Of a DNA stretch of 64,000 nt, positions 15,492 through 41,239 are shown in pieces. The translations under genes and the position numbers were made by a program. The DNA comes from a virus (taxonomy: Duplodnaviria; Caudoviricetes), in the IMG/VR virus record IMGVR_UViG_3300002220_003476, positions 15,495 to 79,494 of that record; one strand, written 5' to 3'. The stretch's first letter is position 1. Every line of letters starts with the position of its first letter. Under the pieces are notes generated by a model. It saw only the letters and a list, made by a program, of their open reading frames with translations. It was not told where the DNA came from and made no database searches.

Positions 15492-16383
15492 ATTTTACAT
15501 ACCAGATCAACATAGATGGGACCATCATAGACATGGATGGAATTTTGTTGTTCAAGAATTACAAAAATATTCCAATAGAAATGGAATTTTGTTAGAAACA
15601 ACATTTGATAATAAACACACATACGACTATCAACAATATAAAAATACACTACCAATTACTCAACCTTGGGTTGGATTTTTACATTTAACCCCTAATAAAG
15701 ACTTATCAATCGATTTTACTATATCTGAAGCGTTTAATCACCAACGATGTAAAGAATCGTTAGATAACTGTTTAGGATTATATACATTATCTAAATATTT
15801 AAAAAATCATGTTGACAATTTTAATTTACCATTTCTTGTTGAGAATTTATATCTTCCAACAGATCTTAATATACATCAATTTAGACCAAAAGAAATACAA
15901 AACATAATTCATCTTGGTCATCATAAAAGAAAATTTGAAAGCTTTGCTAGACTACAAACAAGTCTTAATAAGATAACGGTAGTAGCACACGATAGAGGGT
16001 GGAGTCTACTAAAATCTAGATTAAATGAAAAAGAAACAATACGACATAATTTATGTATCGGAATATCTAATCAACATTTAGATGAACTATTAATTTCCAA
16101 TGTAGTTTTTGTAGACTTATTCGATTCAAGTGCTAATAATACAGTCGTTGAATGCATAGCGAGAAATACACCAATTTTAATTAATGATCATCCAGCAGTA
16201 AAAGAATATCTAGGAGATGATTATCCCTTTTACTATTCTTCTCTAGAAGAAGCTTCTTTTAAGCTTAATGCAGAGTCTATTAATCAAGCATATGAATATC
16301 TAGTAAACAAAGATAAAAATTTTCTAAGTATAGAATCGTTTATATCAGATATTCAAAAATCTAAAATTTATCAATCATTATGA
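15481..16383 (+). CDS. GT-B-like glycosyltransferase
   Basis: HRHGW, WVGFLH, DSSANNTVVECIARNTPILIN.HPAVKEYLG..YP. Confidence 0.6.
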   Translation: MLNKFYIPDQHRWDHHRHGWNFVVQELQKYSNRNGILLETTFDNKHTYDYQQYKNTLPITQPWVGFLHLTPNKDLSIDFTISEAFNHQRCKESLDNCLGLYTLSKYLKNHVDNFNLPFLVENLYLPTDLNIHQFRPKEIQNIIHLGHHKRKFESFARLQTSLNKITVVAHDRGWSLLKSRLNEKETIRHNLCIGISNQHLDELLISNVVFVDLFDSSANNTVVECIARNTPILINDHPAVKEYLGDDYPFYYSSLEEASFKLNAESINQAYEYLVNKDKNFLSIESFISDIQKSKIYQSL

Positions 16384-17129
16384 CATATCACTTTGTTACA
16401 GAATCAGAACCTTATTGGATATTAGGTAATATATGTAAGAGTCTAAGCAAATATTTATCTGCTTCTATATCTTCTAATATAGATAATACTAAAGATGTGA
16501 ACATTTTTGTAAACTACTGTGTTAATATGGATGGTTTTGATCAGTGTACATCTAAAAGACTATGTTTATTTACACACAGGGAGACAGATGTAAAATCAGA
16601 CGAATGGGATTACACAGCAAGAGAGTGTGATTATTGTTTATGTCAATCTTCTCAATGGTTATCATATTTGCCTAATGAAAAAACAACACTCTTTAATATA
16701 GGATTAGATGATATATTCTATAAAAATAGTGATAAGCTTACTATAGGAGTTATTGGAAGAGAATATGATTATACAGATAGAAAGAATTATTCTCTTTTAA
16801 AAGAAATAAAAAAAATAAACGGTGTAAAAATTAAATTTTCTGGAGGTAGATTATCTCTAAATGAACTAGATCAACTATATAATGATGTCGATATTATATT
16901 AGTCACATCAAAAATAGAGGGCGGTCCAATGTGTATTAAAGAAGCTATAGCCAAAAGAAAAATAGTGATATCATCTCCAGTTGGTTATGCGTTGGAATAT
17001 CCTTGTATCACTTACAACACTCAGCAAGAGTTGTTAAATATAATTAAAAGTTATATCATTCACGGTAATGAATGGTTGCATTCGGCAATTATGATTAAAG
17101 AAATAACACAGAAAATTAAATATGACTAA
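16380..17129 (+). CDS. glycosyltransferase family 4
   Basis: LYNDVDIILVTSKIEGGPMCIKEAIA...ISSPVG. Confidence 0.8.
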   Translation: MTYHFVTESEPYWILGNICKSLSKYLSASISSNIDNTKDVNIFVNYCVNMDGFDQCTSKRLCLFTHRETDVKSDEWDYTARECDYCLCQSSQWLSYLPNEKTTLFNIGLDDIFYKNSDKLTIGVIGREYDYTDRKNYSLLKEIKKINGVKIKFSGGRLSLNELDQLYNDVDIILVTSKIEGGPMCIKEAIAKRKIVISSPVGYALEYPCITYNTQQELLNIIKSYIIHGNEWLHSAIMIKEITQKIKYD

Positions 17130-17949
17130 CGAAAATAATCAATATACAACAGACGCAGACTTTAATTTTCTCCTATTAATCAATTTTATTGAAGAACTCA
17201 AAAATACCACATCTATTAAAAATAAGCAATCTATTATCAAAAAATATATTGTTGACGATTTTATAAGAAAAGTTTTATTTTATACATATAATTCATTTAA
17301 ACAGTATTACGTCACCAGTGATAATTGTAAAAAATTACTAGATAGAAATATTGAAGGAAAAAAATATACATCAGTATTTGATCTTCTAGACGATCTGTCT
17401 GATAGGGTTATTACTGGGCATGAAGCTGTTCATGCAGTTAATGAGCTTGCAAAAACTTATCCAGTTGTTTATGATATTGTAGACAAAGATTTAAAATGTC
17501 GAATTGGGGCGTCTCTAATCAATAAAGTGGTGAATTTAATTCCGACATTTGATGTGGCGTTAGCTAATGTTTATGAACCTAAACTAGTTAATATTTTAAC
17601 TGATGATTGGTATATATCACATAAAATTGACGGTTGTGTTGATTATGACACTTTAGTAGAATTTGAAGATGGAAAGAAAATTAAAATTGGAGAAGTTGTA
17701 GATAATAAAATTCATGGCAATATAAAATCTTTTAATCATCAAACTAATAAAATAGAATATAAACCAATATTGAATTTTATGAAAAATATAGATGATATAA
17801 ATGACTCATCAGACGAGTGGTTTGAAATAGAGTTAGATAATGGTAATAAATTACAAATTACTGGTAATGATACAGTATATCTTCCAGAGATAAATATTTA
17901 TCGTCGTGTAGACCAATTACAAGGAAATGAATCTATTTATTTTGACTAA
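17122..17949 (+). CDS. lig: ATP-dependent DNA ligase N-terminal fragment fused to split intein N-part
   Basis: ligase N-domain, motif I HKIDG immediately followed by intein block A CVDYDTLV; ORF stops after 104 intein residues. Confidence 0.9.
   Translation: MTNENNQYTTDADFNFLLLINFIEELKNTTSIKNKQSIIKKYIVDDFIRKVLFYTYNSFKQYYVTSDNCKKLLDRNIEGKKYTSVFDLLDDLSDRVITGHEAVHAVNELAKTYPVVYDIVDKDLKCRIGASLINKVVNLIPTFDVALANVYEPKLVNILTDDWYISHKIDGCVDYDTLVEFEDGKKIKIGEVVDNKIHGNIKSFNHQTNKIEYKPILNFMKNIDDINDSSDEWFEIELDNGNKLQITGNDTVYLPEINIYRRVDQLQGNESIYFD
17635..17946 (+). mobile_element. split intein, N-part (104 aa)
   Basis: C1-VDYDTLVEFEDGKKIKIGEV; block B-like ELDNGNKLQITGND; acidic. Confidence 0.85.
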
Positions 17950-17987
17950 AATAATATTATTTTCATAATTTTCTGTCTATCTTGTAA

Positions 17988-18188
17988 CTATCAGATTATA
18001 TTATACATACTTGGTCTGGAGATTTAACAGCAGAAGAAATATGGTTTAAAGACTAGTCTAGAAAAAAATATTTAGAAAGCTTTGTATATAAAGTTTATAT
18101 ATTCTGGGAGTCTGAAATACGAACTAATATAAAAATAGTTGAAGAAAAAATATGCCAAATATTAAAATTAAAAATATTAAAAGAATAA
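17988..18188 (+). pseudogene. remnant of Vsr-like/DUF559-type homing endonuclease
   Basis: TAEEIWFKD*SRKKYLESFVYKVYIFWESEI with in-frame TAG at 18054 and no start; overlaps IntC start codon. Confidence 0.7.
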
Positions 18189-18262
18189 ATAGTAGAACCA
18201 AATATGAACTACAAGTTAAAGATAATGAAAATTATTTTGCTAATGGTATTTTAAAACATAAT
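18152..18262 (+). mobile_element. split intein, C-part (37 aa)
   Basis: basic MPNIKIKNIKRIN...YELQV...NYFANGILKHN followed by +1 Cys. Confidence 0.88.
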
Positions 18263-19045
18263 TGTCGCTGTATAATCATTATCGACAAAAATGGACAATC
18301 AACATTTTGGTCTAGACAAGGAAAACAATTTGATACACTTCAAGTGGTAGAAAATTATATTAAGACGCTAGGTATACATTCTTATGTATTAGACTGTGAA
18401 GTATGTCTAGATAATAACGGTGATGACTTTCAAGGTATAATGAAAGAAATTCGTCGTAAAGATCATACGATAAAAAACCCCTCCTGTAAAATATTCGACT
18501 GTCTCACCTTTGAAGAGTTCTCTTCACAAAAAAGCACCACGATTCTATCTGAAAGACTAAAAAGAATCGCACTCCCGGATAATCCAATACTATGTTTTCT
18601 TCTTCAAGAACAATATAAGTCTAAAGAAGTATTAGACAAATGGCTTAAAATAGCGGCCAATAACAATTGGGAAGGCTTGATATTAAGAAAAGATGCTCCG
18701 TATAAAGGTAAGCGTAGTAATGATTTACTGAAGGTAAAAAGTTTTATTGATGCAGAATATGTAGTAAAGGGAATTACTACTGGTCCAATGAGATATGTAG
18801 TTGACAATAAAGAAGTTGAAGAAGAAATGTTAACATCAGTATTAATAAATCATAAAGGATATGAAGTTGGTGTTGGTAGTGGATTTTCTATCGACGAACG
18901 TAAAAAATTCTTTAAAGACCAAAAACAAATTATTGGTAAAACAATATGTGTTCAATATTTCGAAGAAACACACAACCAAGATGGTGGAATATCATTAAGA
19001 TTCCCAACTGTTAAGTTTATATATGAAGGAAAAAGAAATGTATGA
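18152..19045 (+). CDS. lig: split intein C-part fused to ATP-dependent DNA ligase C-terminal fragment
   Basis: YFANGILKHN|CRC, then LDCEV, IFDC, EGLILR, LLKVK, GSGFS...R, SLRFP. Confidence 0.9.
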   Translation: MPNIKIKNIKRINSRTKYELQVKDNENYFANGILKHNCRCIIIIDKNGQSTFWSRQGKQFDTLQVVENYIKTLGIHSYVLDCEVCLDNNGDDFQGIMKEIRRKDHTIKNPSCKIFDCLTFEEFSSQKSTTILSERLKRIALPDNPILCFLLQEQYKSKEVLDKWLKIAANNNWEGLILRKDAPYKGKRSNDLLKVKSFIDAEYVVKGITTGPMRYVVDNKEVEEEMLTSVLINHKGYEVGVGSGFSIDERKKFFKDQKQIIGKTICVQYFEETHNQDGGISLRFPTVKFIYEGKRNV

Positions 19046-19472
19046 ACAAATAGACAAATTTTATTCACGCGAACTAGATAATAGTTTTTTAAATATTAAA
19101 TATAAACATTATATAGATCTTGGTCTGGACACAAATATGTTAGTCTATGATACAGACACCTTATTGTTAACAAGAAATTTACTTTCATTAATGATAAAAA
19201 CTGCAAACGAATCTAAAAAAGATTTTGATTCTTTTTTTATTCAAAAAGAAGACTTTGAACATTTTTATAGAGTACACGTTGGAAGTGTTATTGATTCAAC
19301 AAAAAATCAATGTTCTATTTTCGGCAAAACGATTAAAACAATAACAGAAGAAGATTTACAAGATATTATAAAATATTTTACTAATCAAGGTGGTTTTTTT
19401 CTAACTGATTGTGATAGACTCCTATTAGGAGTAGACAAAGATTATGTTTTAATTGGAACTTATAAAAAATAA
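19038..19472 (+). CDS. hypothetical protein
   Basis: ORF. Confidence 0.55.
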   Translation: MYEQIDKFYSRELDNSFLNIKYKHYIDLGLDTNMLVYDTDTLLLTRNLLSLMIKTANESKKDFDSFFIQKEDFEHFYRVHVGSVIDSTKNQCSIFGKTIKTITEEDLQDIIKYFTNQGGFFLTDCDRLLLGVDKDYVLIGTYKK

Positions 19473-19481
19473 CTTGGATAT

Positions 19482-20162
19482 ATGAAACTATTAACTAAAT
19501 CATTTAAGACTGAAAAAAGCGATAATGCTAATTTAGGTTATCTACAATGTATACAATATTTAGCTCCACACAAGTTAAGTGGACATAACCTCTGCCCCAA
19601 TGCAAGTCAAGGGTGTATTGACTCCTGTCTAAATACTTCAGGAAGAGGTCAGATGAATTCAGTACAGAAAGCAAGATTAAACCGCACGCTTTTCTTCTTT
19701 CAAGACAGAATAAAATACAAAGAACAATTATTACAAGAAGTTCTCTCCTTTAAGAAGAAATGTATCAAACAAAATAAAAAGGCTGCAATTCGATTAAATG
19801 GAACATCTGATCTAGACTGGCAGCGTTTATATCCTGAATTATTTGAAATCGATGATATTCAATGGTTCGATTATACAAAATCAAAATTGAGATATGAAAA
19901 ATTTTTAGATGGACAACTACAAGAAAATTATCATTTAACATTTTCTTATGGTAAACCAGAAGATGAAGAATTTTGTGTACAAGTTTTGCGTAATGGTGGT
20001 AATGTTGCAGTAGTATTTCATAACAAAGCAAATAAATGGAAAAGATTTCAGTGTATTGATGGTGATGCTCACGATCTTAGATTTTTAGATAGTCGAGGAA
20101 AAGTGGTAGCATTACAAGCTAAAGGAAAAGCAAAACGTGATAATACAGGTTTTGTAGTTTAG
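19482..20162 (+). CDS. GP88-like phage protein
   Basis: NLCPNASQGCIDSCL, RLNGTSD, FDYTK, NYHLTFS, DGDAHDLRFLD, KGKAK.D.TGFV. Confidence 0.75.
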   Translation: MKLLTKSFKTEKSDNANLGYLQCIQYLAPHKLSGHNLCPNASQGCIDSCLNTSGRGQMNSVQKARLNRTLFFFQDRIKYKEQLLQEVLSFKKKCIKQNKKAAIRLNGTSDLDWQRLYPELFEIDDIQWFDYTKSKLRYEKFLDGQLQENYHLTFSYGKPEDEEFCVQVLRNGGNVAVVFHNKANKWKRFQCIDGDAHDLRFLDSRGKVVALQAKGKAKRDNTGFVV

Positions 20163-20787: not shown

Positions 20788-23700
20788 ATGTATAAATATA
20801 ATGAAGTTTATGAGGAAAGTCTTAAATATTTTAATGGTAATGATTTAGCATCAAAAGTTTTTGTTGATAAATATGCTTTAAGAGATAATAATGATAATTT
20901 TCATGAATTAACTCCAGACGATATGCATCGTAGACTGGCGAAAGAATTTGCCAGAATCGAAAAAAATAAATTCTTAGAACCAATGAGTGAAGATGATATT
21001 TATGAATTATTTAAGGATTTCAAATATCTTGTTCCACAAGGTTCTCCTATGTTTGGTATTGGTAATCAATATTCAATAGTTTCACTTGGGAACTGTTTTG
21101 TGTTACCGAATCCTACAGATTCATACCTAGGTATCATGAATACCGATACTCAAATTGTATCAATTTCATCAAAACGTGGTGGTGTTGGTTGGGATATTTC
21201 AAACTTAAGACCGGCAGGACTAAGCGTTAATAATGCAGCAAAATCAACAACTGGAGCAGTATCATTTATGCATAGATTCTCTAATTCTATTAGAGAAGCA
21301 TGTCAATGTATCGCTAGTGGAGAAAGAGTTCTTATTAAAACTGGATTATCAAAAATAGAAGATGTTAATATTGAAGATCAAATCTGGACCCATAAAGGTT
21401 GGAAATCGGTAATAAATAAATTTGAGAACGGACAAAAAACTGTTTATAAAATTTTAACTAAAAGAGGGTTTTCAATTAGATGTTCAGAAGATCATGAATT
21501 CTATAATGAAGATCTAGAATTAATACCAGTAAAAGATTTTGAATGCGGACAAAATATTGTTACATTAACCGGATCTACTACAACTAAAAGGTTAATTAAA
21601 TTAAATACCGATGTTAAATACGAAAAAAAAAGTTCTAATAAATCTTCAAGACTTAATACAAATATCAAATATCCAGAATATCTAAATAAAGATTTAGCTT
21701 ACTTATTAGGATTCTCTTATGGAGACGGATTCTATAACATAGATAAATTTTCAGAAAAATATGGATTAGGTCTATCTTGTGGTAATGATTATCCAGAAAT
21801 AAAAACTAAACTAATAAATATTATAAAAAGTCAATTTAATTTTAATGCAACCATAAAGAACGGTGATGGTAATCTAGAAGTTATTTCTATCTATAGTAAG
21901 TTAATATGTAAATTTTTAGAAGTTAATAATTTAACTAAAGAAAAATCTCTTAATATTAAGTTTCCTCAAAAAATATTTGAATCACAATCTGAAGTACAAC
22001 TAGCATTTATTTCTGGTTATTTAGACGCAGATGGATGTACATCTAACACTATTAAAAGTGGAATTAATTTTAACTCTATAAATAAAAAATTTTTAGAAGA
22101 TTGTCAATTTATTTTAATGAGCAATGGTATTAACTCAACATTAAGAGATAATACATGTCAATCTAGACCTAATCACTGGAATAATATTTATAGATTATCA
22201 ATTAATGGAGGATATGCACAAAGATTAAGTTTAGAACTTTTAAAAGATAGTATTAAAATTAGTAAAATAGAACAAATATCAGGAAAAGATTTTACTAAAA
22301 CGCCTTATACTGCTAAAAATTTAAATATTAAAAGAGGTAATCTTTCATATCCGGGTGATAATTTTATATCTTGTAATGTATTAGAATTATTAAAAAATGA
22401 TAATATAATAGATAAAAATCTACAACCTTTAGTTTTAGATGAGATAATTTCTATTGAAAACGATGGAATAGAATATACGTATGATCTAACAGTTGAAGAC
22501 ACTCACATGTTTTGGTGTGAAGGATTTTACACAAAAAATTCTGGTAGAAGAGGTGCTAGTCTCCAATCAATATCTGTTCACCATCCGGAAATACTAGAAT
22601 TTATTAAAGTAAAACAAGATCTTACTAAAATAACTGGTTCTAATATCTCTGTTCAGTTTACTGATGAATTTATGAATGCTTTAGTTAATGAACAAACATA
22701 TGAACAAAGATGGCCAATCGATTCTAACAATCCAAAAATTCAAGAATATGTTAATTCTAAAAATATATGGAAGGAATTTATTCATTCAGCTTGGTTGATG
22801 GCTGAACCCGGTTGTATGTTTATTGATAAAGTTCATAAAGAAAGTACAGGAGTACCATATGGCTATAGGGAAAGTTCAAGTAATCCATGCGGCGAACAAT
22901 ATTTACCCCCTTTTGCTTCTTGTCGTCTATTAGTAATTAATTTATATTCTTATATTAAAAATAAATTTACAGATAATTCTGAATTTGATTGGGGTTTATT
23001 TGATAAACATGTACAAATACTTCAAAGACTTGGTGACAATTTAGTTGATCTAGAAATTGAAGCAATAGATCGTATAATTTATAAGATGGAATCTGATCCA
23101 GAATCAGAAGAGATTAAAAAACCTGGATTAGATTTATGGAAAAATGTACGCAAAACAGCCTTAGAAGATCGTAGAACAGGTTGTGGATTTACTGGTTTAG
23201 CTGATTGTTTAGCAGCATTAAATATCCAATATGGATCACAAGAATCAATTCATTTTTGTGAAAAAATGCAACAACAATTTAAGTGGTCTGCATATGAATC
23301 ATCTGTAGATATGGCTAAAGAATTAGGACCTTTTCCTTTATATGATAAAAATTTAGATATCAAATCTGAATTTATACAACGTATACAGAAAGATAATTCT
23401 GAATTATACAAAAAAATGATAAAATATGGCCGTAGAAATATGGTTTTATTAACTGTTGCTCCGACTGGTAGCGTTTCTTGTTTAACTAGAACGTCTTCTG
23501 GACTAGAACCTGTTTTTATGACTCATTATATGAGAAGAAAAAAGGGTAACCCTGGAGATAAAGATTTTAGATCTGATTTTGTTGATAACAACGGTGATCA
23601 TTGGATGCATTTTGATGTATATCATCAAGGCGTATTAGACTGGATGGATTGTACTGGAGAAAAAGATATTGCAGCAAGTCCATATTTTATGGCAACAGCG

Positions 23701-24411
23701 AATGAGATAAATTGGATCAATAGAGTTAAAATGCAAGCAGCTTTACAGAGACATATAGATAACTCTATTTCTAGTACCGTAAACCTTCCTTCAGATACAA
23801 CTGAAGAAAAAGTTGGAGAAATTTATTTAACAGCTTGGAAAGAAGGTTTAAAAGGTATAACAGTATATAGAGACGGTTGTAGAACTGGAGTTTTAATAAA
23901 TAAAACAGAAGAAAAACAACCAGAAAGTAGACCAGATATTTTAGAGTGCGATGTTCATAAAATACCAAGTAAAGATGGTATATATTTTGTACTTGTAGGC
24001 TTATTAAATGGTAAGCCGTACGAGATATTCGGCGGCAAAGGTGTTGATTTAGACTCTTCTGTTCATAAAGGAAAAATTATTAAAGTAAAAAGACCAAAGG
24101 GTTATAAAGCTATATTAGAAGATGAAACAGAATTAAGTCCACTGTCCGCTTTCTGCTCCACTGAAGAAGAAGCTTTAATGAGAATGGCTTCAATAGCTAT
24201 ACGTAGTTGTACTCCAATAGAAAATATAGTTGATCAACTTACTAAAGCTAAAGGTGATATGTATACATTTGCTCGGGCTGTAGCTAAAGCTTTAAAGAAA
24301 TATATTAAAGATGGAACAAAATCAACACAAAAATGTACATGTGGAGCAAATTTAGTATATTCTGAAGGTTGTGTTTCTTGTCTTAGTTGTGGAGCATCAA
24401 AATGCGGATAA
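20788..24411 (+). CDS. nrdJ: class II (adenosylcobalamin) ribonucleotide reductase with cis-intein
   Basis: PQGSPMFGIG, SLGNCFV, RGGVG, GRRGA, SNPCGEQ, APTGS, C-terminal Zn-ribbon; no beta subunit adjacent. Confidence 0.9.
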   Translation: MYKYNEVYEESLKYFNGNDLASKVFVDKYALRDNNDNFHELTPDDMHRRLAKEFARIEKNKFLEPMSEDDIYELFKDFKYLVPQGSPMFGIGNQYSIVSLGNCFVLPNPTDSYLGIMNTDTQIVSISSKRGGVGWDISNLRPAGLSVNNAAKSTTGAVSFMHRFSNSIREACQCIASGERVLIKTGLSKIEDVNIEDQIWTHKGWKSVINKFENGQKTVYKILTKRGFSIRCSEDHEFYNEDLELIPVKDFECGQNIVTLTGSTTTKRLIKLNTDVKYEKKSSNKSSRLNTNIKYPEYLNKDLAYLLGFSYGDGFYNIDKFSEKYGLGLSCGNDYPEIKTKLINIIKSQFNFNATIKNGDGNLEVISIYSKLICKFLEVNNLTKEKSLNIKFPQKIFESQSEVQLAFISGYLDADGCTSNTIKSGINFNSINKKFLEDCQFILMSNGINSTLRDNTCQSRPNHWNNIYRLSINGGYAQRLSLELLKDSIKISKIEQISGKDFTKTPYTAKNLNIKRGNLSYPGDNFISCNVLELLKNDNIIDKNLQPLVLDEIISIENDGIEYTYDLTVEDTHMFWCEGFYTKNSGRRGASLQSISVHHPEILEFIKVKQDLTKITGSNISVQFTDEFMNALVNEQTYEQRWPIDSNNPKIQEYVNSKNIWKEFIHSAWLMAEPGCMFIDKVHKESTGVPYGYRESSSNPCGEQYLPPFASCRLLVINLYSYIKNKFTDNSEFDWGLFDKHVQILQRLGDNLVDLEIEAIDRIIYKMESDPESEEIKKPGLDLWKNVRKTALEDRRTGCGFTGLADCLAALNIQYGSQESIHFCEKMQQQFKWSAYESSVDMAKELGPFPLYDKNLDIKSEFIQRIQKDNSELYKKMIKYGRRNMVLLTVAPTGSVSCLTRTSSGLEPVFMTHYMRRKKGNPGDKDFRSDFVDNNGDHWMHFDVYHQGVLDWMDCTGEKDIAASPYFMATANEINWINRVKMQAALQRHIDNSISSTVNLPSDTTEEKVGEIYLTAWKEGLKGITVYRDGCRTGVLINKTEEKQPESRPDILECDVHKIPSKDGIYFVLVGLLNGKPYEIFGGKGVDLDSSVHKGKIIKVKRPKGYKAILEDETELSPLSAFCSTEEEALMRMASIAIRSCTPIENIVDQLTKAKGDMYTFARAVAKALKKYIKDGTKSTQKCTCGANLVYSEGCVSCLSCGASKCG
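21307..22539 (+). mobile_element. LAGLIDADG intein in RNR (411 aa)
   Basis: Q|CIASGERV ... LLGFSYGDG, ISGYLDADG ... YDLTVEDTHMFWCEGFYTKN|SGRRGA. Confidence 0.92.
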
Positions 24412-35140: not shown

Positions 35141-36982
35141 ATGTTTGTACCAAATCACTTACATACAAAATATTCTTTAATGGATTCTGATATTAGAGCA
35201 GATAAACTTGCAAAAAAATGTGTAGAATATGAATATCCAGCTTGCACAATAACAGACCACGGAAATATTGCTGGGGTTGTTGAGTTTTCAAATGCTCTTC
35301 TAAAAGAAGGTATTAAACCTATAAATGGTATCGAATTGTATGTTTCGTCATTAGATGCGACAATTAAGAGTGATCTGAACAAAAAATTATTACATATGGT
35401 ATGTCTTGCTAAAAACAAGCAAGGGTTTTATGATTTATGTAAAATTGTATCAAGATCCAATGATGACGATGTATTTTATTATAAACCAAGATTAGATCTC
35501 AACAAACTTGGTGAATTAAAAACTAATAACTTGTTATGGTTTACTGGTCATCCTGGCAGCATTCTATTTGATGCTATTATGAATGAAGGAAAAATACATA
35601 GTGATTCAATACCAAATAGTGTTCGTATGATTAATCGTATGATTGACCTCTTTGGTAAAGAAAATTTATTTATTGAAGTTCAACGAGTTTGCTATCATAA
35701 TAGTGAATATTCAGATATATTAACGGAAATATCTCAAAGAACAGGCGTTAAAACTATTGCGTGTATAGACGCACACTATGTTGATAAAGCCGACGTAAAA
35801 AATCAGAGATTATTATTAGCGTCTTCTCTAGGGACAAATTTAGTCAGATGGAAACAAGATCTAGCCCATTCTGGTATGTCTTCTTTTTTCCTTCAAGATC
35901 ATTATCATATACCATCATATAAAGAGTTGAAAGCTGTTCACACTGAAGAAGAGTTAAAAAACAACTTATTGATAAACGATATGTGTGAATCTTATAGTTT
36001 AAAAAATAAACCATCTCTGCCAAGGTTTGAATGCCCAAATGGTATGACTGAAGAATTATACCTAAAAGACTTATGCAGACAAGGTTGGAGAAACATTTTA
36101 CAAAAACGAAATGTAGTTGATGATAAATTTAAACAAAATCAATATGCAGAACGAGTTCTAACAGAACTAGATGTGATCTCAGAATATGATTTATCTGGAT
36201 ATTTTCTTATTGTTCAAGATGTAATTAAATGGGCAAGAGATCAAACTTTTTTAAATACTGGAAGGGGTTCTGCTGCTGGTAGTTTAGTATCATATTTACT
36301 TGGTATAACACTTGTAGATCCAATTCCTTATAATTTGTTATTTACCAGATTCTTAAATAGAGGAAGGTTTACAAAAGATCACTTTGAATATCCTGATATT
36401 GATATGGATTTTCCCGGCGATTTTAGAGAAAAAGCTATTGATTATGTTAAAGAAAAGTATGGTAAGAATAGAGTTGGTAAAGTTGCAACATTTGGCACAT
36501 TACATGGCGCTGGAGCAATTAAAGAAGTGTTAAGAATGCATCAAGCTGTTTCTCCAACAGAGATGGATCAAATAACAAAATATATTCCACAAGAAGCAGA
36601 TGTATCAGATCATATGTCATCTCAGGAGGAAAAATCTATTATTAGATATACATTAAGAAACATGCCTTCAGTATTAGAAGAATATTGTACTATTGATGAC
36701 AAAGATGTTTTGCATGGTAAATTAGCTTCATATTTTCAGCAATCAATTGAAATTGAAGGTGCTGTTAAGTCTCAGGGAGTTCATGCTGCTGGTCTTATTA
36801 TATCGGCAAATGACTTAAATGAATCTTGTCCAATGGTAAGATCAAAAGATGGAGAAAAAATGTGTGGCATAGAAATGGATGGATTAAAGGATATGGGTTT
36901 TATTAAATTTGATTTTTTATCAGTAAATAGTTATTCAAAATTAAACAGAGTCAATGAATTATTAAGAGGCAGCAATGTATAG
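35141..36982 (+). CDS. dnaE: DNA polymerase III alpha, N-terminal part (PHP + palm)
   Basis: HLHTKYS, TDHGN, GRGSAAGSLVSYLLGIT, PDIDMDF, HAAG, IKFDFL then stop. Confidence 0.93.
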   Translation: MFVPNHLHTKYSLMDSDIRADKLAKKCVEYEYPACTITDHGNIAGVVEFSNALLKEGIKPINGIELYVSSLDATIKSDLNKKLLHMVCLAKNKQGFYDLCKIVSRSNDDDVFYYKPRLDLNKLGELKTNNLLWFTGHPGSILFDAIMNEGKIHSDSIPNSVRMINRMIDLFGKENLFIEVQRVCYHNSEYSDILTEISQRTGVKTIACIDAHYVDKADVKNQRLLLASSLGTNLVRWKQDLAHSGMSSFFLQDHYHIPSYKELKAVHTEEELKNNLLINDMCESYSLKNKPSLPRFECPNGMTEELYLKDLCRQGWRNILQKRNVVDDKFKQNQYAERVLTELDVISEYDLSGYFLIVQDVIKWARDQTFLNTGRGSAAGSLVSYLLGITLVDPIPYNLLFTRFLNRGRFTKDHFEYPDIDMDFPGDFREKAIDYVKEKYGKNRVGKVATFGTLHGAGAIKEVLRMHQAVSPTEMDQITKYIPQEADVSDHMSSQEEKSIIRYTLRNMPSVLEEYCTIDDKDVLHGKLASYFQQSIEIEGAVKSQGVHAAGLIISANDLNESCPMVRSKDGEKMCGIEMDGLKDMGFIKFDFLSVNSYSKLNRVNELLRGSNV

Positions 36983-37726: not shown

Positions 37727-38466
37727 TTAAAAACTATATAGTGTTTCGAGATTACGAAACAGCAGAAATGAATCCAAATAGTGCTCAAATTACAGAGTTA
37801 GCTGCTGTAATTATAGATCCTCGATCACTAGAGGTAATTCCAGAATCAGTATTTTGTTCTAAAGTTTGTCCAGAATGGGACGACGACAAAGCAACAAAAG
37901 CTGGTTGGCTACCAGTAAATTATAAATCATTAGAAGTTTGTGGTTTTACTAAGGCTGATTTAGAATATGCTCCACAGGCAAAATTTGTTTGGGGAGAATA
38001 TCTTAACTATCTCAACAGATATGGACTCAAAGGTAAAGCTGGTAATAATTGGAACGCACCTATTGTAGCTGGATTCAATTCAAGCAATTTTGATGATATT
38101 ATTGATTTAAATATGTGTTCTAAGTTTGGCCCAAAACTGGGAGCTAGAGGAGATTGGCCATTTTATCATCCAACAATTAAATTTGATTTAATGCAATTAA
38201 TGCATATTGTGTTAAATAATATTCAACTAAACGCTAGAAATAGTATGTCTATGGATACTATTAGAGAATATTTTGGTATGGACAATGACTTATCACACAG
38301 AGCAAGTTTTGACGTTTTACAAGGTGCAGAATTGTTTATTAAAGTTCTAAAACTGTTTAGAGCATTAACAGAAGGTACTGTTGAACTAACAAAAGGTAAG
38401 AAATTAGTATTCAAGAATTGCTTTGAAAAAGAAAATGCCAAAATACGAAAATTACTACAAGTTTAA
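37723..38466 (+). CDS. DEDDh 3'-5' exonuclease (DnaQ/epsilon-like)
   Basis: DYET, AGFN...FD, HRASFDV. Confidence 0.85.
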   Translation: MIKNYIVFRDYETAEMNPNSAQITELAAVIIDPRSLEVIPESVFCSKVCPEWDDDKATKAGWLPVNYKSLEVCGFTKADLEYAPQAKFVWGEYLNYLNRYGLKGKAGNNWNAPIVAGFNSSNFDDIIDLNMCSKFGPKLGARGDWPFYHPTIKFDLMQLMHIVLNNIQLNARNSMSMDTIREYFGMDNDLSHRASFDVLQGAELFIKVLKLFRALTEGTVELTKGKKLVFKNCFEKENAKIRKLLQV

Positions 38467-41239
38467 TTGCGGTTGTGAATTTCCTATATTAGATGAAGAA
38501 ATTAAAGGTGATAATCTTCCGTCAATAGAAATACCATATCAAGAATTGTGTTTAGATATGAATTATGGTAAAGTATGCCAAAAATCTTTCGATATGATTT
38601 CTGATGGAAAAAGTAAAGGAGTTTTTCAATTAGAAAGTTATCTTGGTAATAAATGGGGATCAGAATTAAAGCCGGATAACATTGAAGAATTAGCTGCCCT
38701 AATAAGCATAATTAGGCCTGGGTGTCTGTCCAAAACTACTCAGATATTAATTTCTGCCAATTATAGATTAGATAAAAACAATACTCGACAATATAAATAT
38801 GTATCAATTGAACAAATGTTCAAAAATAAAAAAAGATTTAAGAAAATTATATCAGTAAAAGAAAACACTGGTGAATTATTTTCTAATAAAATAACAGATA
38901 TTATTTATAGCGGTAAGAAGGAAGTGTTCAAATTAAATTTAACAACATATCTGAAAGAAAAAAATAAGGATAATTCATTTTGTTTTGCATTAAAATGTAC
39001 ATCTGATCATCCAATATTAACATCAAAAGGTTATGTAGAATTAAAAGAATTAAAACCTGGAGATAAAGTAGCCGTATTACAAAAGGGATTACACAAAAAA
39101 ACAAACCCAAAACATGTTCACGGAACAGATAATCATAGAAATATATGTAATAAACATTATGAATATCACTGTGTTTTATGTGATTGGAAAAAAGGATCTT
39201 TAGACGTAAACCACTTGAATGGAAATACTTATCAAGATAATAATCCAGAAAATTTATGTTTTTTATGTCCAAATGATCATAGATTATATACTGAAGGCAA
39301 GGTTTCTAACGAAGAACTTATTACTAAAAGAAAAATATATGAATTACCAAGAATGAAAGATGTTGTTTGGGCCACATATTTAGGTAAAGAAAGTTTAGGA
39401 ATTGAAGATACATATGATATATCTGTTGACGGTCCACATCATAATTTTATCGCCAATAATGTCGTGGTACACAATTGTTTAAATGCTATTTCTGAAGACA
39501 AATCACTAACTCAACACTATGTCGACAGAAAATGGAATATTGAACAAACGATACCTCTAAACAAAGAACTTGAAGATTTACTTGATACAACTCATCAAAT
39601 CATGATTTATCAAGAAGATTCAATTCGTATTGCTTCTAAGATTGCCGGATTTACAGAAGAACAAGGGGACGTACTTCGAAAAAGCGTGGGTACCAAAAAT
39701 ATAGAATTAATGAAGCAAGTAGAAAGCATGTTTACAGAGGGTTGTATTAAACGTGGACTTGTTATTGAAAGTGAAGCTAAAGAAATTTTTGACTGGATTA
39801 GAGAGAGTCAAAGATATTCATTTAACAAATGTTTATCTGGCATTACAATCTTGAAAGAAGAAAATAAAGGGTTTACATGCATACAAGACATACAAATTGG
39901 AGATAGAGTACTAGGACCGTCTGCTGAAAAAGGTGGCTCCTTTTATAAAGTTTTAGATGTTATTAATAATGGTAGAAAACTATGTTATACATACTGGCTA
40001 TCCAATAATTTATCTATTAAATGTACCGAGGATCACAAGGTAAAATCTAGAGGACAAATGATCCCAATTGGTCAAATTATTAAAAGAAAACAGCCGATAG
40101 ATACAATCTATGGTCCAGCTTTTATTTTATTGCAAAGTAAAGGATATTATACTGACACATATGATATTGAGATCGACTCAAAAAAACATGTATTTTATGC
40201 CAACGGAATAGCGGTATCAAATTCACACGCTGTATCCTATGGCTACATTAGTTATCTAACAGCTCTAGTTAAACATCATTTTCCTCTTCATTTTTTCTGT
40301 TCTTGGTTGCAACTTGCAAGAGAAAAACAAAAACCTCATGAAGAAATCAGAGAACTTTTTGAAGAGAGTAAAAAGATGAACATTAACATTATTACACCAA
40401 ACTTAGAAACACTTAACTTAAATGATAATGATGTGTGTATCTATAATAATAATATACATTTCGGACTGAAGTGTATGAAAAAAATAGGTGATTCAAGTAT
40501 TAAGGCTATTCATAGTCTATTAACAGAAAAACAAAGTAAGTTTGGACATATCAACACTTGGTCTTGGAACAAAATTTTATATGAACTATTAATCAATATA
40601 AAATCAGACTGTGCTTATGCTTTAATTACTGGAGGCGTATTAGATAGGCTTCGAATTTCTAGAAATAGAATGTTAAATGAATATGAAAAATTGAGAGCTT
40701 TAACAAAAAAACAGTTAGAATTTTTACAATCTACAGTTGAAGACGAGGAACCTTTTACAGATTCATTAAGAAGGCTATATGAAAAAGTAAATAAAACACA
40801 AAAAGATAAAATTAATAGTATAATAACACTACAAGAAAATACTGTTATATCTGAACAAGATAGAATCCCTTGGATAATATCACAAGAAAAAACTATTTAT
40901 GGTGTACCAGTAACATATTCATCAATAGATGCGTTAAAAAAGGGTTCTCCTGGACAAGATAAATGTGAAGACTTTCTATCTGAACAAACAAATTTTATAA
41001 TTGCTGGAGAGATTCAAAACTTAAGAGTGTTCAAAATTAAAAAAGATGGACCAAATAAAGGTAAAACAATGTCTAGTTTTGAACTTGTTGATGATACAGG
41101 ATCTGTTAATTGTGTATTATTTGATAATATCTATGAAATAGAAAAGGATAAGCTATATGATGGAAATTTAATTGTGGTACAAGGATATAAATCAAAAACA
41201 AAATCATTATCAGTTAAATCTATGAAGGAAATTTATTAA
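38435..41239 (+). CDS. dnaE: DNA polymerase III alpha, C-terminal part with two cis-inteins
   Basis: GVFQLES, IRPG, IYQE, FNK|SH..Y, YP-like HFPLHFF, HFGL..KKIG, OB-fold ELVDDTG. Confidence 0.92.
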   Translation: MPKYENYYKFNCGCEFPILDEEIKGDNLPSIEIPYQELCLDMNYGKVCQKSFDMISDGKSKGVFQLESYLGNKWGSELKPDNIEELAALISIIRPGCLSKTTQILISANYRLDKNNTRQYKYVSIEQMFKNKKRFKKIISVKENTGELFSNKITDIIYSGKKEVFKLNLTTYLKEKNKDNSFCFALKCTSDHPILTSKGYVELKELKPGDKVAVLQKGLHKKTNPKHVHGTDNHRNICNKHYEYHCVLCDWKKGSLDVNHLNGNTYQDNNPENLCFLCPNDHRLYTEGKVSNEELITKRKIYELPRMKDVVWATYLGKESLGIEDTYDISVDGPHHNFIANNVVVHNCLNAISEDKSLTQHYVDRKWNIEQTIPLNKELEDLLDTTHQIMIYQEDSIRIASKIAGFTEEQGDVLRKSVGTKNIELMKQVESMFTEGCIKRGLVIESEAKEIFDWIRESQRYSFNKCLSGITILKEENKGFTCIQDIQIGDRVLGPSAEKGGSFYKVLDVINNGRKLCYTYWLSNNLSIKCTEDHKVKSRGQMIPIGQIIKRKQPIDTIYGPAFILLQSKGYYTDTYDIEIDSKKHVFYANGIAVSNSHAVSYGYISYLTALVKHHFPLHFFCSWLQLAREKQKPHEEIRELFEESKKMNINIITPNLETLNLNDNDVCIYNNNIHFGLKCMKKIGDSSIKAIHSLLTEKQSKFGHINTWSWNKILYELLINIKSDCAYALITGGVLDRLRISRNRMLNEYEKLRALTKKQLEFLQSTVEDEEPFTDSLRRLYEKVNKTQKDKINSIITLQENTVISEQDRIPWIISQEKTIYGVPVTYSSIDALKKGSPGQDKCEDFLSEQTNFIIAGEIQNLRVFKIKKDGPNKGKTMSSFELVDDTGSVNCVLFDNIYEIEKDKLYDGNLIVVQGYKSKTKSLSVKSMKEIY
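38723..39475 (+). mobile_element. HNH-containing intein in DnaE (251 aa)
   Basis: RPG|CLSKTTQI, CTSDHP, CVLC...HLNGN...NNPENLCFLCPNDH, YDISV...HNFIANNVVVHN|C. Confidence 0.9.
39830..40222 (+). mobile_element. mini-intein in DnaE (131 aa)
   Basis: FNK|CLSGIT, CTEDHK, YDIEI...FYANGIAVSN|SH. Confidence 0.9.

Follow-up and report, generated by a model that had tools for sequence, protein, structure and literature searches.

Genes of phage origin that are broken in two, each piece carrying one half of a split intein, were described by Dassa, London, Stoddard, Schueler-Furman and Pietrokovski in 2009 (PMC2677866), at loci encoding gp41-1 to gp41-9, NrdJ-1 and NrdJ-2, NrdA, IMPDH, DnaE, a DNA ligase and terminase. 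We analysed a locus with the same layout of two open reading frames (ORFs), in which one extein precedes the N-terminal intein half (IntN) and the C-terminal intein half (IntC) precedes the other; as at one of the loci of Dassa et al., the fractured gene encodes a DNA ligase. It lies in a 64-kb stretch (the window; positions 15,495 to 79,494) of the 79.5-kb IMG/VR virus record IMGVR_UViG_3300002220_003476 (GC 29.7%; completeness estimate 52%). Judged from the sequence, trans-splicing of the two products into a ligase of 431 amino acids (aa) is the best explanation for this arrangement, and a likely one. The arrangement has been known since 2009; the intein family is uncharacterised, and its block B variant is the unusual part.

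The ligase of Dassa et al. was described as most similar to that of phage Felix O1, with a 5'-3' exonuclease gene downstream of it, whereas no exonuclease gene follows in the window. Given that the Felix O1 ligase shares only 23% identity with the window ligase, the window ligase probably belongs to a different lineage from theirs, the two being set apart through Felix O1 as a stand-in. A further likeness is found at their gp41-7 locus, which is also without an endonuclease gene.

By profile and fold, the nearest solved inteins are NrdJ-1 (8ubs) and the DnaE inteins of Npu and Ssp (4qfq, 4lx3, 2keq). A profile of the window's intein family matches NrdJ-1, to which identity is about 21%, at E 5e-6, and reaches about 1e-5 with Npu DnaE (4lx3/4qfq); single-sequence PDB searches with both genes gave no significant intein match. 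These split inteins share with that of the window the split position, halves of about 100 and about 37 aa, and the class 1 features of Cys1 and a terminal HN. They differ in overall sequence (only about 16-21% identity), in block B and at position F:4 (TxxH and Asp, as opposed to TGND and Glu in the window), and NrdJ-1 uses Ser+1 where the window intein has Cys+1. A preliminary description of the locus had called the split intein probably new. It is indeed distant in sequence from all solved split inteins, but the arrangement had already appeared in Dassa et al. A literature search found no published description of a split intein in ligase motif I or of a TxxD block B.

A ligase gene in two pieces

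All large ORFs in the window are on the + strand. The N-gene (17122-17949) encodes 275 aa, reading ISHKIDG, then Cys172 and 103 more residues up to a TAA at 17947-17949. The C-gene (18152-19045) encodes 297 aa, the first 37 of which end in FANGILKHN and are followed by CRC. Because the gap of 202 nt between the two genes has stops in all three + frames, and because the ORFs occupy different frames, read-through from the N-gene into the C-gene is impossible. There is no clear Shine-Dalgarno sequence upstream of either gene, as is the case for many genes of the contig.

Both exteins are recognisable as parts of a T4-like ATP-dependent DNA ligase. A phmmer search of the PDB with the N-gene product finds T4 ligase (6dt1, E 3e-6) and its DNA-binding domain (5wfy), and the family profile matches 6dt1 at E 9e-20. 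The AlphaFold2 (AF2) model has predicted local distance difference test (pLDDT) values of 92-97 for N-gene residues 11-140, and Foldseek places it with 6dt1/5wfy at E 3e-6 to 1e-5. The C-extein matches Pfam DNA_ligase_A_M (E 2e-13) and DNA_ligase_OB_2 (E 5e-8), as well as 6rau/6rar in the PDB (E 5e-13). Against PHROG 114 (ATP-dependent DNA ligase), the N-gene covers the profile up to position 250 (E 1.6e-26) and the C-gene continues from position 250. When joined, the exteins make 431 aa that align without a gap across the junction to intein-free ligases, with 51-57% identity. The predicted spliced product has the helical DNA-binding domain and motifs I, III, IV and V together with motif VI of the OB domain, including YVLDCE, EGLILR, LLKVK and LRFP. 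At the insertion site, intein-free relatives read KLDG-V-RC, which aligns to KIDG-C-RC of the predicted product; hence, the intein interrupts motif I between its Gly and its variable residue.

These results agree with much of the preliminary description. Its proposal of a fractured DNA ligase whose motif I harbours a split intein is confirmed by the ORFs, the complementary Pfam and PHROG matches and the family. Its expectation that splicing would rebuild KIDGCR, with the adenylated Lys on the N-fragment, is supported by K168 preceding the junction and by the gap-free alignment. The acidic and basic character that it gave to IntN (104 aa) and IntC (37 aa) corresponds to computed net charges of -10 (isoelectric point 4.5) and +5 (isoelectric point about 10), respectively.

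An ENA contig of 88.6 kb and a JGI contig, from different samples, match the window with 100% identity across 5.8 and 5.1 kb, stop and spacer included. Since independent assemblies are identical across this region, an error of assembly or sequencing at the stop at 17947, which the preliminary description had named as one of two findings that would overturn it, is ruled out. Furthermore, a protein search of metagenomic sequences returned 41 clusters of N-fragments (254-287 aa, 36-54% identity), all with K-x-D-G followed by Cys and IntN, and 26 among the best 120 C-gene matches are clusters of C-fragments that open with IntC and have HN followed by Cys. Given that 41 N-fragment and at least 26 C-fragment clusters have the same split, the split is not due to chance and the stop is real. 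Among 50,697 phage records, blastn with positions 16000-20000 found no match, and tblastn found intein-free ligases only, with identity below 32%.

Features of the fractured ligase locus (positions in the window)
Feature	Position	Strand	Basis
DNA ligase N-extein, 171 aa: helical DNA-binding domain of T4 type, then motif I through K168-I-D-G171	17122..17634	+	PDB phmmer, PHROG, AF2/Foldseek
IntN, 104 aa: Cys1 codon 17635-17637; ends in TAA	17635..17949	+	Pfam PF14890, family profile, Foldseek
Remnant of a gene for a Vsr-like homing endonuclease (DUF559/EDxHD-type): ~62-75 codons from the 3' end, out of ~300	17958..18185	+	tblastn, Pfam DUF559
IntC, 37 aa: basic start, block F Y-E-L-Q-V, block G ..I-L-K-H-N	18152..18262	+	Pfam PF14890, family alignment
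C-extein, 260 aa from Cys+1: remaining nucleotidyltransferase domain (motifs III, IV, V), OB domain (motif VI), stop	18263..19045	+	Pfam, PDB

Two minor observations concern the ligases themselves. Motif III of the window ligase (18395-18412) reads V-L-D-C-E, where the usual form is D-G-E, as in the relative L001. Three other sequences (P0040, P0055 and P0081) are ligase N-terminal pieces of ~260 aa with an intact KLDG(C)R and a stop ~90 residues past motif I; a second break site in ligases may account for them, or they may merely be truncated calls.

Intein halves and the block B variant

The two halves divide Pfam Intein_splicing (PF14890, 155 positions) between them, IntN covering positions 3-93 (22.3 bits) and IntC positions 120-155 (24.0 bits), so that the break falls between blocks B and F, the canonical position. 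In the AF2 model, the IntN portion (pLDDT about 70-90) is matched by Foldseek to Npu DnaE IntN (4qfq_A) at E 6e-5, with poor template modelling score and root-mean-square deviation in what is a two-domain model. The residues expected of a splicing intein are largely in place. Cys1 (Cys172 of the N-gene product, directly after KIDG) is invariant in the 41 N-fragment clusters, and Thr B:7 is kept across them. Block G of the window reads K-H-N and is followed by C-R-C; the penultimate His, the terminal Asn and Cys+1 are present in 26/26 C-fragments among the best 120 matches.

Block B is the exception. His B:10 is the most conserved residue of inteins (Mills, Johnson and Perler 2014, PMC4031507), and the class 1 form of the block is TxxH; the window reads T247-G-N-D250 (17860-17871). 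D250, which is Asp79 of IntN and occupies position B:10, aligns with the block B His of NrdJ-1 (8ubs), NpuDnaB (4o1r) and the TFIIB intein (5o9i). A sister branch within this family reads TGNH or TSNH here: 28 of the IntN clusters are of the TGND form, and 13 are of the T[GS]NH form. The difference extends to the other half of the intein. Among the best 120 C-gene matches, 18 IntC clusters combine Glu F:4 with K-H-N (the TGND form) and 8 combine Asp F:4 with V-H-N (the T[GS]NH form), and mixed types (Glu with Val, or Asp with Lys) are absent from these 26. At loci where both halves are available, TGND goes with Glu/Lys in 7/7 cases and TxNH goes with Asp/Val in 3/3.

Another natural class 1 intein without His B:10 is Tko CDC21-1 (Tori et al. 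2012, as cited in PMC4031507 and PMC6333167), which splices by means of a compensatory residue, Lys58, located outside the motifs, and which has a bulky Leu at -1. That intein is archaeal and contiguous, whereas the window intein is a split intein of a phage, with Asp at B:10, Gly at -1, and a covarying Glu F:4 and Lys before HN; its splicing is predicted. Dassa et al. (PMC2677866) make no mention of a block B without His. It is possible, if somewhat doubtful, that the TGND clade represents a split intein lineage that would perform the N-S acyl shift without the block B His, through a co-evolved set of Asp B:10, Glu F:4 and the Lys before HN, with Gly at -1.

A contiguous, unsplit form of the ligase intein was not found among longer proteins, which is weak evidence of its absence; the sole match was to a RecA. 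This protein (P0123, 1119 aa, NCBI source) has two inteins, the second with a LAGLIDADG domain. The second intein shares 50% identity with the first 66 residues of the window IntN (E 2e-16), which suggests shared ancestry or an exchange of modules.

Endonuclease remnant and cassette mobility

Homing endonuclease genes of 295-369 aa stand between the ligase halves in the 8 relatives examined (L001, L004, L011, L012, L013, L096, L098 and L099), their 3' ends overlapping the start of the C-gene; in L014, the contig breaks off within such a gene, of which only the beginning is seen. The products have an N-terminal Cys/His motif, a DUF7487 repeat region and a C-terminal Vsr-like nuclease, which matches DUF559 (E 7e-4) and, by profile and weakly, E. 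coli Vsr (1vsr/1odg, E 0.0055) and I-Bth0305I (3r3p, E 0.07). They belong to the "Vsr-like" family of Dassa et al., and the nuclease resembles I-Bth0305I and other Vsr-like (EDxHD) endonucleases (PMC3239194, 3r3p); the Cys/His motif and the DUF7487 region are additions relative to I-Bth0305I.

In the window, no free-standing endonuclease gene separates the halves, only a dead remnant. When the endonucleases of the 8 related loci were compared with the contig by tblastn, the stretch between the halves was the sole significant match (E 8e-17 to 2e-4), and no intact copy was found elsewhere in the contig. The remnant spans the last 62-75 endonuclease residues, is interrupted by in-frame stops at 17985-17987 and 18054-18056, and overlaps the C-gene start with its tail in another frame. 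About 230 codons are gone, among them those of the catalytic PD...E..GD..H part, the remnant beginning past the E..GD..H core of Vsr-type nucleases; its match to Pfam DUF559 is at E 0.004 over 33 aa. By homology, what fills the spacer is a decayed gene for a Vsr-like homing endonuclease, which the preliminary description had missed.

A comparable loss is seen at L097, which has a canonical TSNH and belongs to the other branch of the family. Its endonuclease gene has been reduced to a 3' stub of ~65 codons without stops in a spacer of 218 nt (L097:1493-1710). Judged by their places in the family, the two losses are independent, so that the endonuclease has been lost twice with nearly the same 3' stub left behind. 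That a similar stub is kept repeatedly points to a constraint on it, which may come from the overlap with the start of IntC or from start signals of the C-gene.

Compared with its TGND relatives, the window has 61-63% identity in IntN and 65-70% in IntC, and the exteins are lower, at 47-55%. In a tree of C-exteins, the window ligase is sister to 12 intein-free ligases (approximate likelihood ratio test, SH-aLRT, support of 90), apart from the main clade of split ligases. Approximately unbiased (AU) tests reject trees in which the split ligases all form a single clade (p 7e-87), and likewise trees with a single clade of every KHN-type ligase (p 0.002), for groups that were defined by intein residues yet tested after the tree was seen. 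Given that the intein-carrying ligases are not one clade, the cassette moves laterally or is repeatedly lost. On this distribution, it appears to behave as a selfish homing element.

Two further observations bear on the distribution. Intein-free P0173, P0176, P0179, P0100 and P0074 have KLDG-C-RC where KLDG-V-RC is usual, and most of them adjoin split clades, although P0074 does not; such Cys+1 alleles may be footprints of precise intein loss, or sites pre-adapted to invasion. In L015 (IMGVR_UViG_3300037086_000474), ~1 kb of short ORFs of low complexity comes after an N-fragment with IntN; the 112-kb record, whose end lies 3 kb further downstream, yielded no C-fragment.

Probable trans-splicing and its alternatives

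The history and function of the locus may be pictured as follows. The intein and a free-standing Vsr-like endonuclease gene would have formed a mobile cassette in motif I (KxDG/xR, the slash marking the insertion point) and left the ligase as two genes; the endonuclease gene would later have been deleted to a dead 3' stub in this phage. The N-gene and C-gene would be co-transcribed and translated separately, and the acidic IntN and basic IntC would associate as a HINT fold. Cys1 would then carry out the N-S acyl shift at Gly171, the thioester would move to Cys+1, the terminal Asn of IntC would cyclise with the assistance of the penultimate His, and an S-N shift would release the 431-aa ligase with motif I KIDGCR, now able to self-adenylate on K168. 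Because Asp replaces His in block B, compensating residues are probably needed in the first step; the candidate set is Asp B:10, always found with Glu F:4 and the Lys before the terminal His-Asn. Given that the 79.5-kb contig encodes one ATP-dependent ligase domain only, splicing would be needed for a functional enzyme.

Several points weigh against trans-splicing. The main doubt is the block B without its canonical His, and splicing activity is therefore less certain than the preliminary description had assumed. The His-less inteins known in 2014 numbered two: a pseudogene, and Tko CDC21-1, which is rescued by a Lys (PMC4031507). Friedel et al. (2018, PMC6333167) described how bulky residues at -1 compensate for a missing block B His; the residue is Gly here, so this steric compensation cannot apply. 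In addition, each intein half alone scores below the Pfam cut-off of 35.8 bits, although the halves are complementary, and with the contig only about 52% complete, a second ligase could lie elsewhere.

It is conceivable, but unlikely, that the change from His to Asp inactivated the intein and left a splicing-dead relic, the ligase gene being broken and host or other ligases serving as substitutes. The His-less block B, the pseudogene among the earlier cases, the endonuclease gene already decayed in the window, and the incomplete contig would all fit such a relic. However, TGND is fixed in 28 diverged clusters in which every nucleophile is kept, both ORFs are intact, and all ligase motifs are present. 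Moreover, the ratio of nonsynonymous to synonymous substitution rates (dN/dS) for IntN is 0.06-0.15 when TGND-type relatives are compared with one another and 0.12-0.27 when the window is compared with them, the synonymous divergence being near saturation wherever the window itself is involved. The ligase exteins are equally constrained, with a similar range of 0.07-0.27. By these ratios, IntN is evidently under purifying selection, contrary to what is expected of a relic.

The preliminary description had also put forward an adaptive post-translational switch, in which conditional splicing, for example redox control through Cys1 and Cys+1, would time ligase activity during infection. We found no support for this claim and consider it very improbable. 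Conditional inteins provide a general precedent only, and Cys residues are present at positions 1, +1 and +3; Cys+3, however, is also present in intein-free ligases (VRC) and is therefore not linked to the intein. The patchy, polyphyletic distribution and the homing endonuclease gene in relatives are as for a selfish mobile element. No regulatory feature was found either: promoter and terminator scans of the locus gave signals no better than chance, and an Rfam scan of the spacer gave no match, so the spacer holds no intron remnant. The least probable of the alternatives is a non-covalent two-chain ligase, in which the intein halves would do no more than hold the chains tightly together as a dimer, without forming a peptide bond. 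Unspliced two-piece phage enzymes exist (PMC3045599), such as NrdA of Aeh1, whose gene is split by an endonuclease gene without an intein, and the opposite charges of IntN and IntC would favour association. However, every member conserves Cys1, the penultimate His and terminal Asn, and Cys+1, which have no use without splicing, and a HINT domain of 141 aa would stay in motif I, three residues past the adenylated Lys.

If trans-splicing does take place, the locus is of interest on two counts. Protein trans-splicing tools are built from natural split inteins, and any pair that is both fast and orthogonal has its use. With about 40 clusters, the family is large as well as diverse, and it has both a TxxH and a TxxD form; hence, it offers a ready-made comparison for activation of the N-terminal junction without the most conserved residue. 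An N-S acyl shift without His would be a form of catalysis that has not been described for inteins, and the TGND clade would then supply split inteins that are orthogonal to those already available and may differ from them in their pH behaviour. The locus is also a record of a fractured gene's life cycle, from lateral spread through loss of the endonuclease to a split intein that is locked in because the ligase needs it.

Other inteins are encoded nearby. A ribonucleotide reductase of 1207 aa (20788-24411) has a contiguous intein with a LAGLIDADG endonuclease domain (PF14890, PF14528, ~residues 199-580). DnaE is encoded by two genes (35141-36982 and 38423-41239), and the product of the second (938 aa) has a contiguous intein at residues 124-351 that scores 39.8 bits against PF14890, over the cut-off. 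Counting those of the ligase, the ribonucleotide reductase and DnaE, the 79.5-kb contig has three inteins in total.

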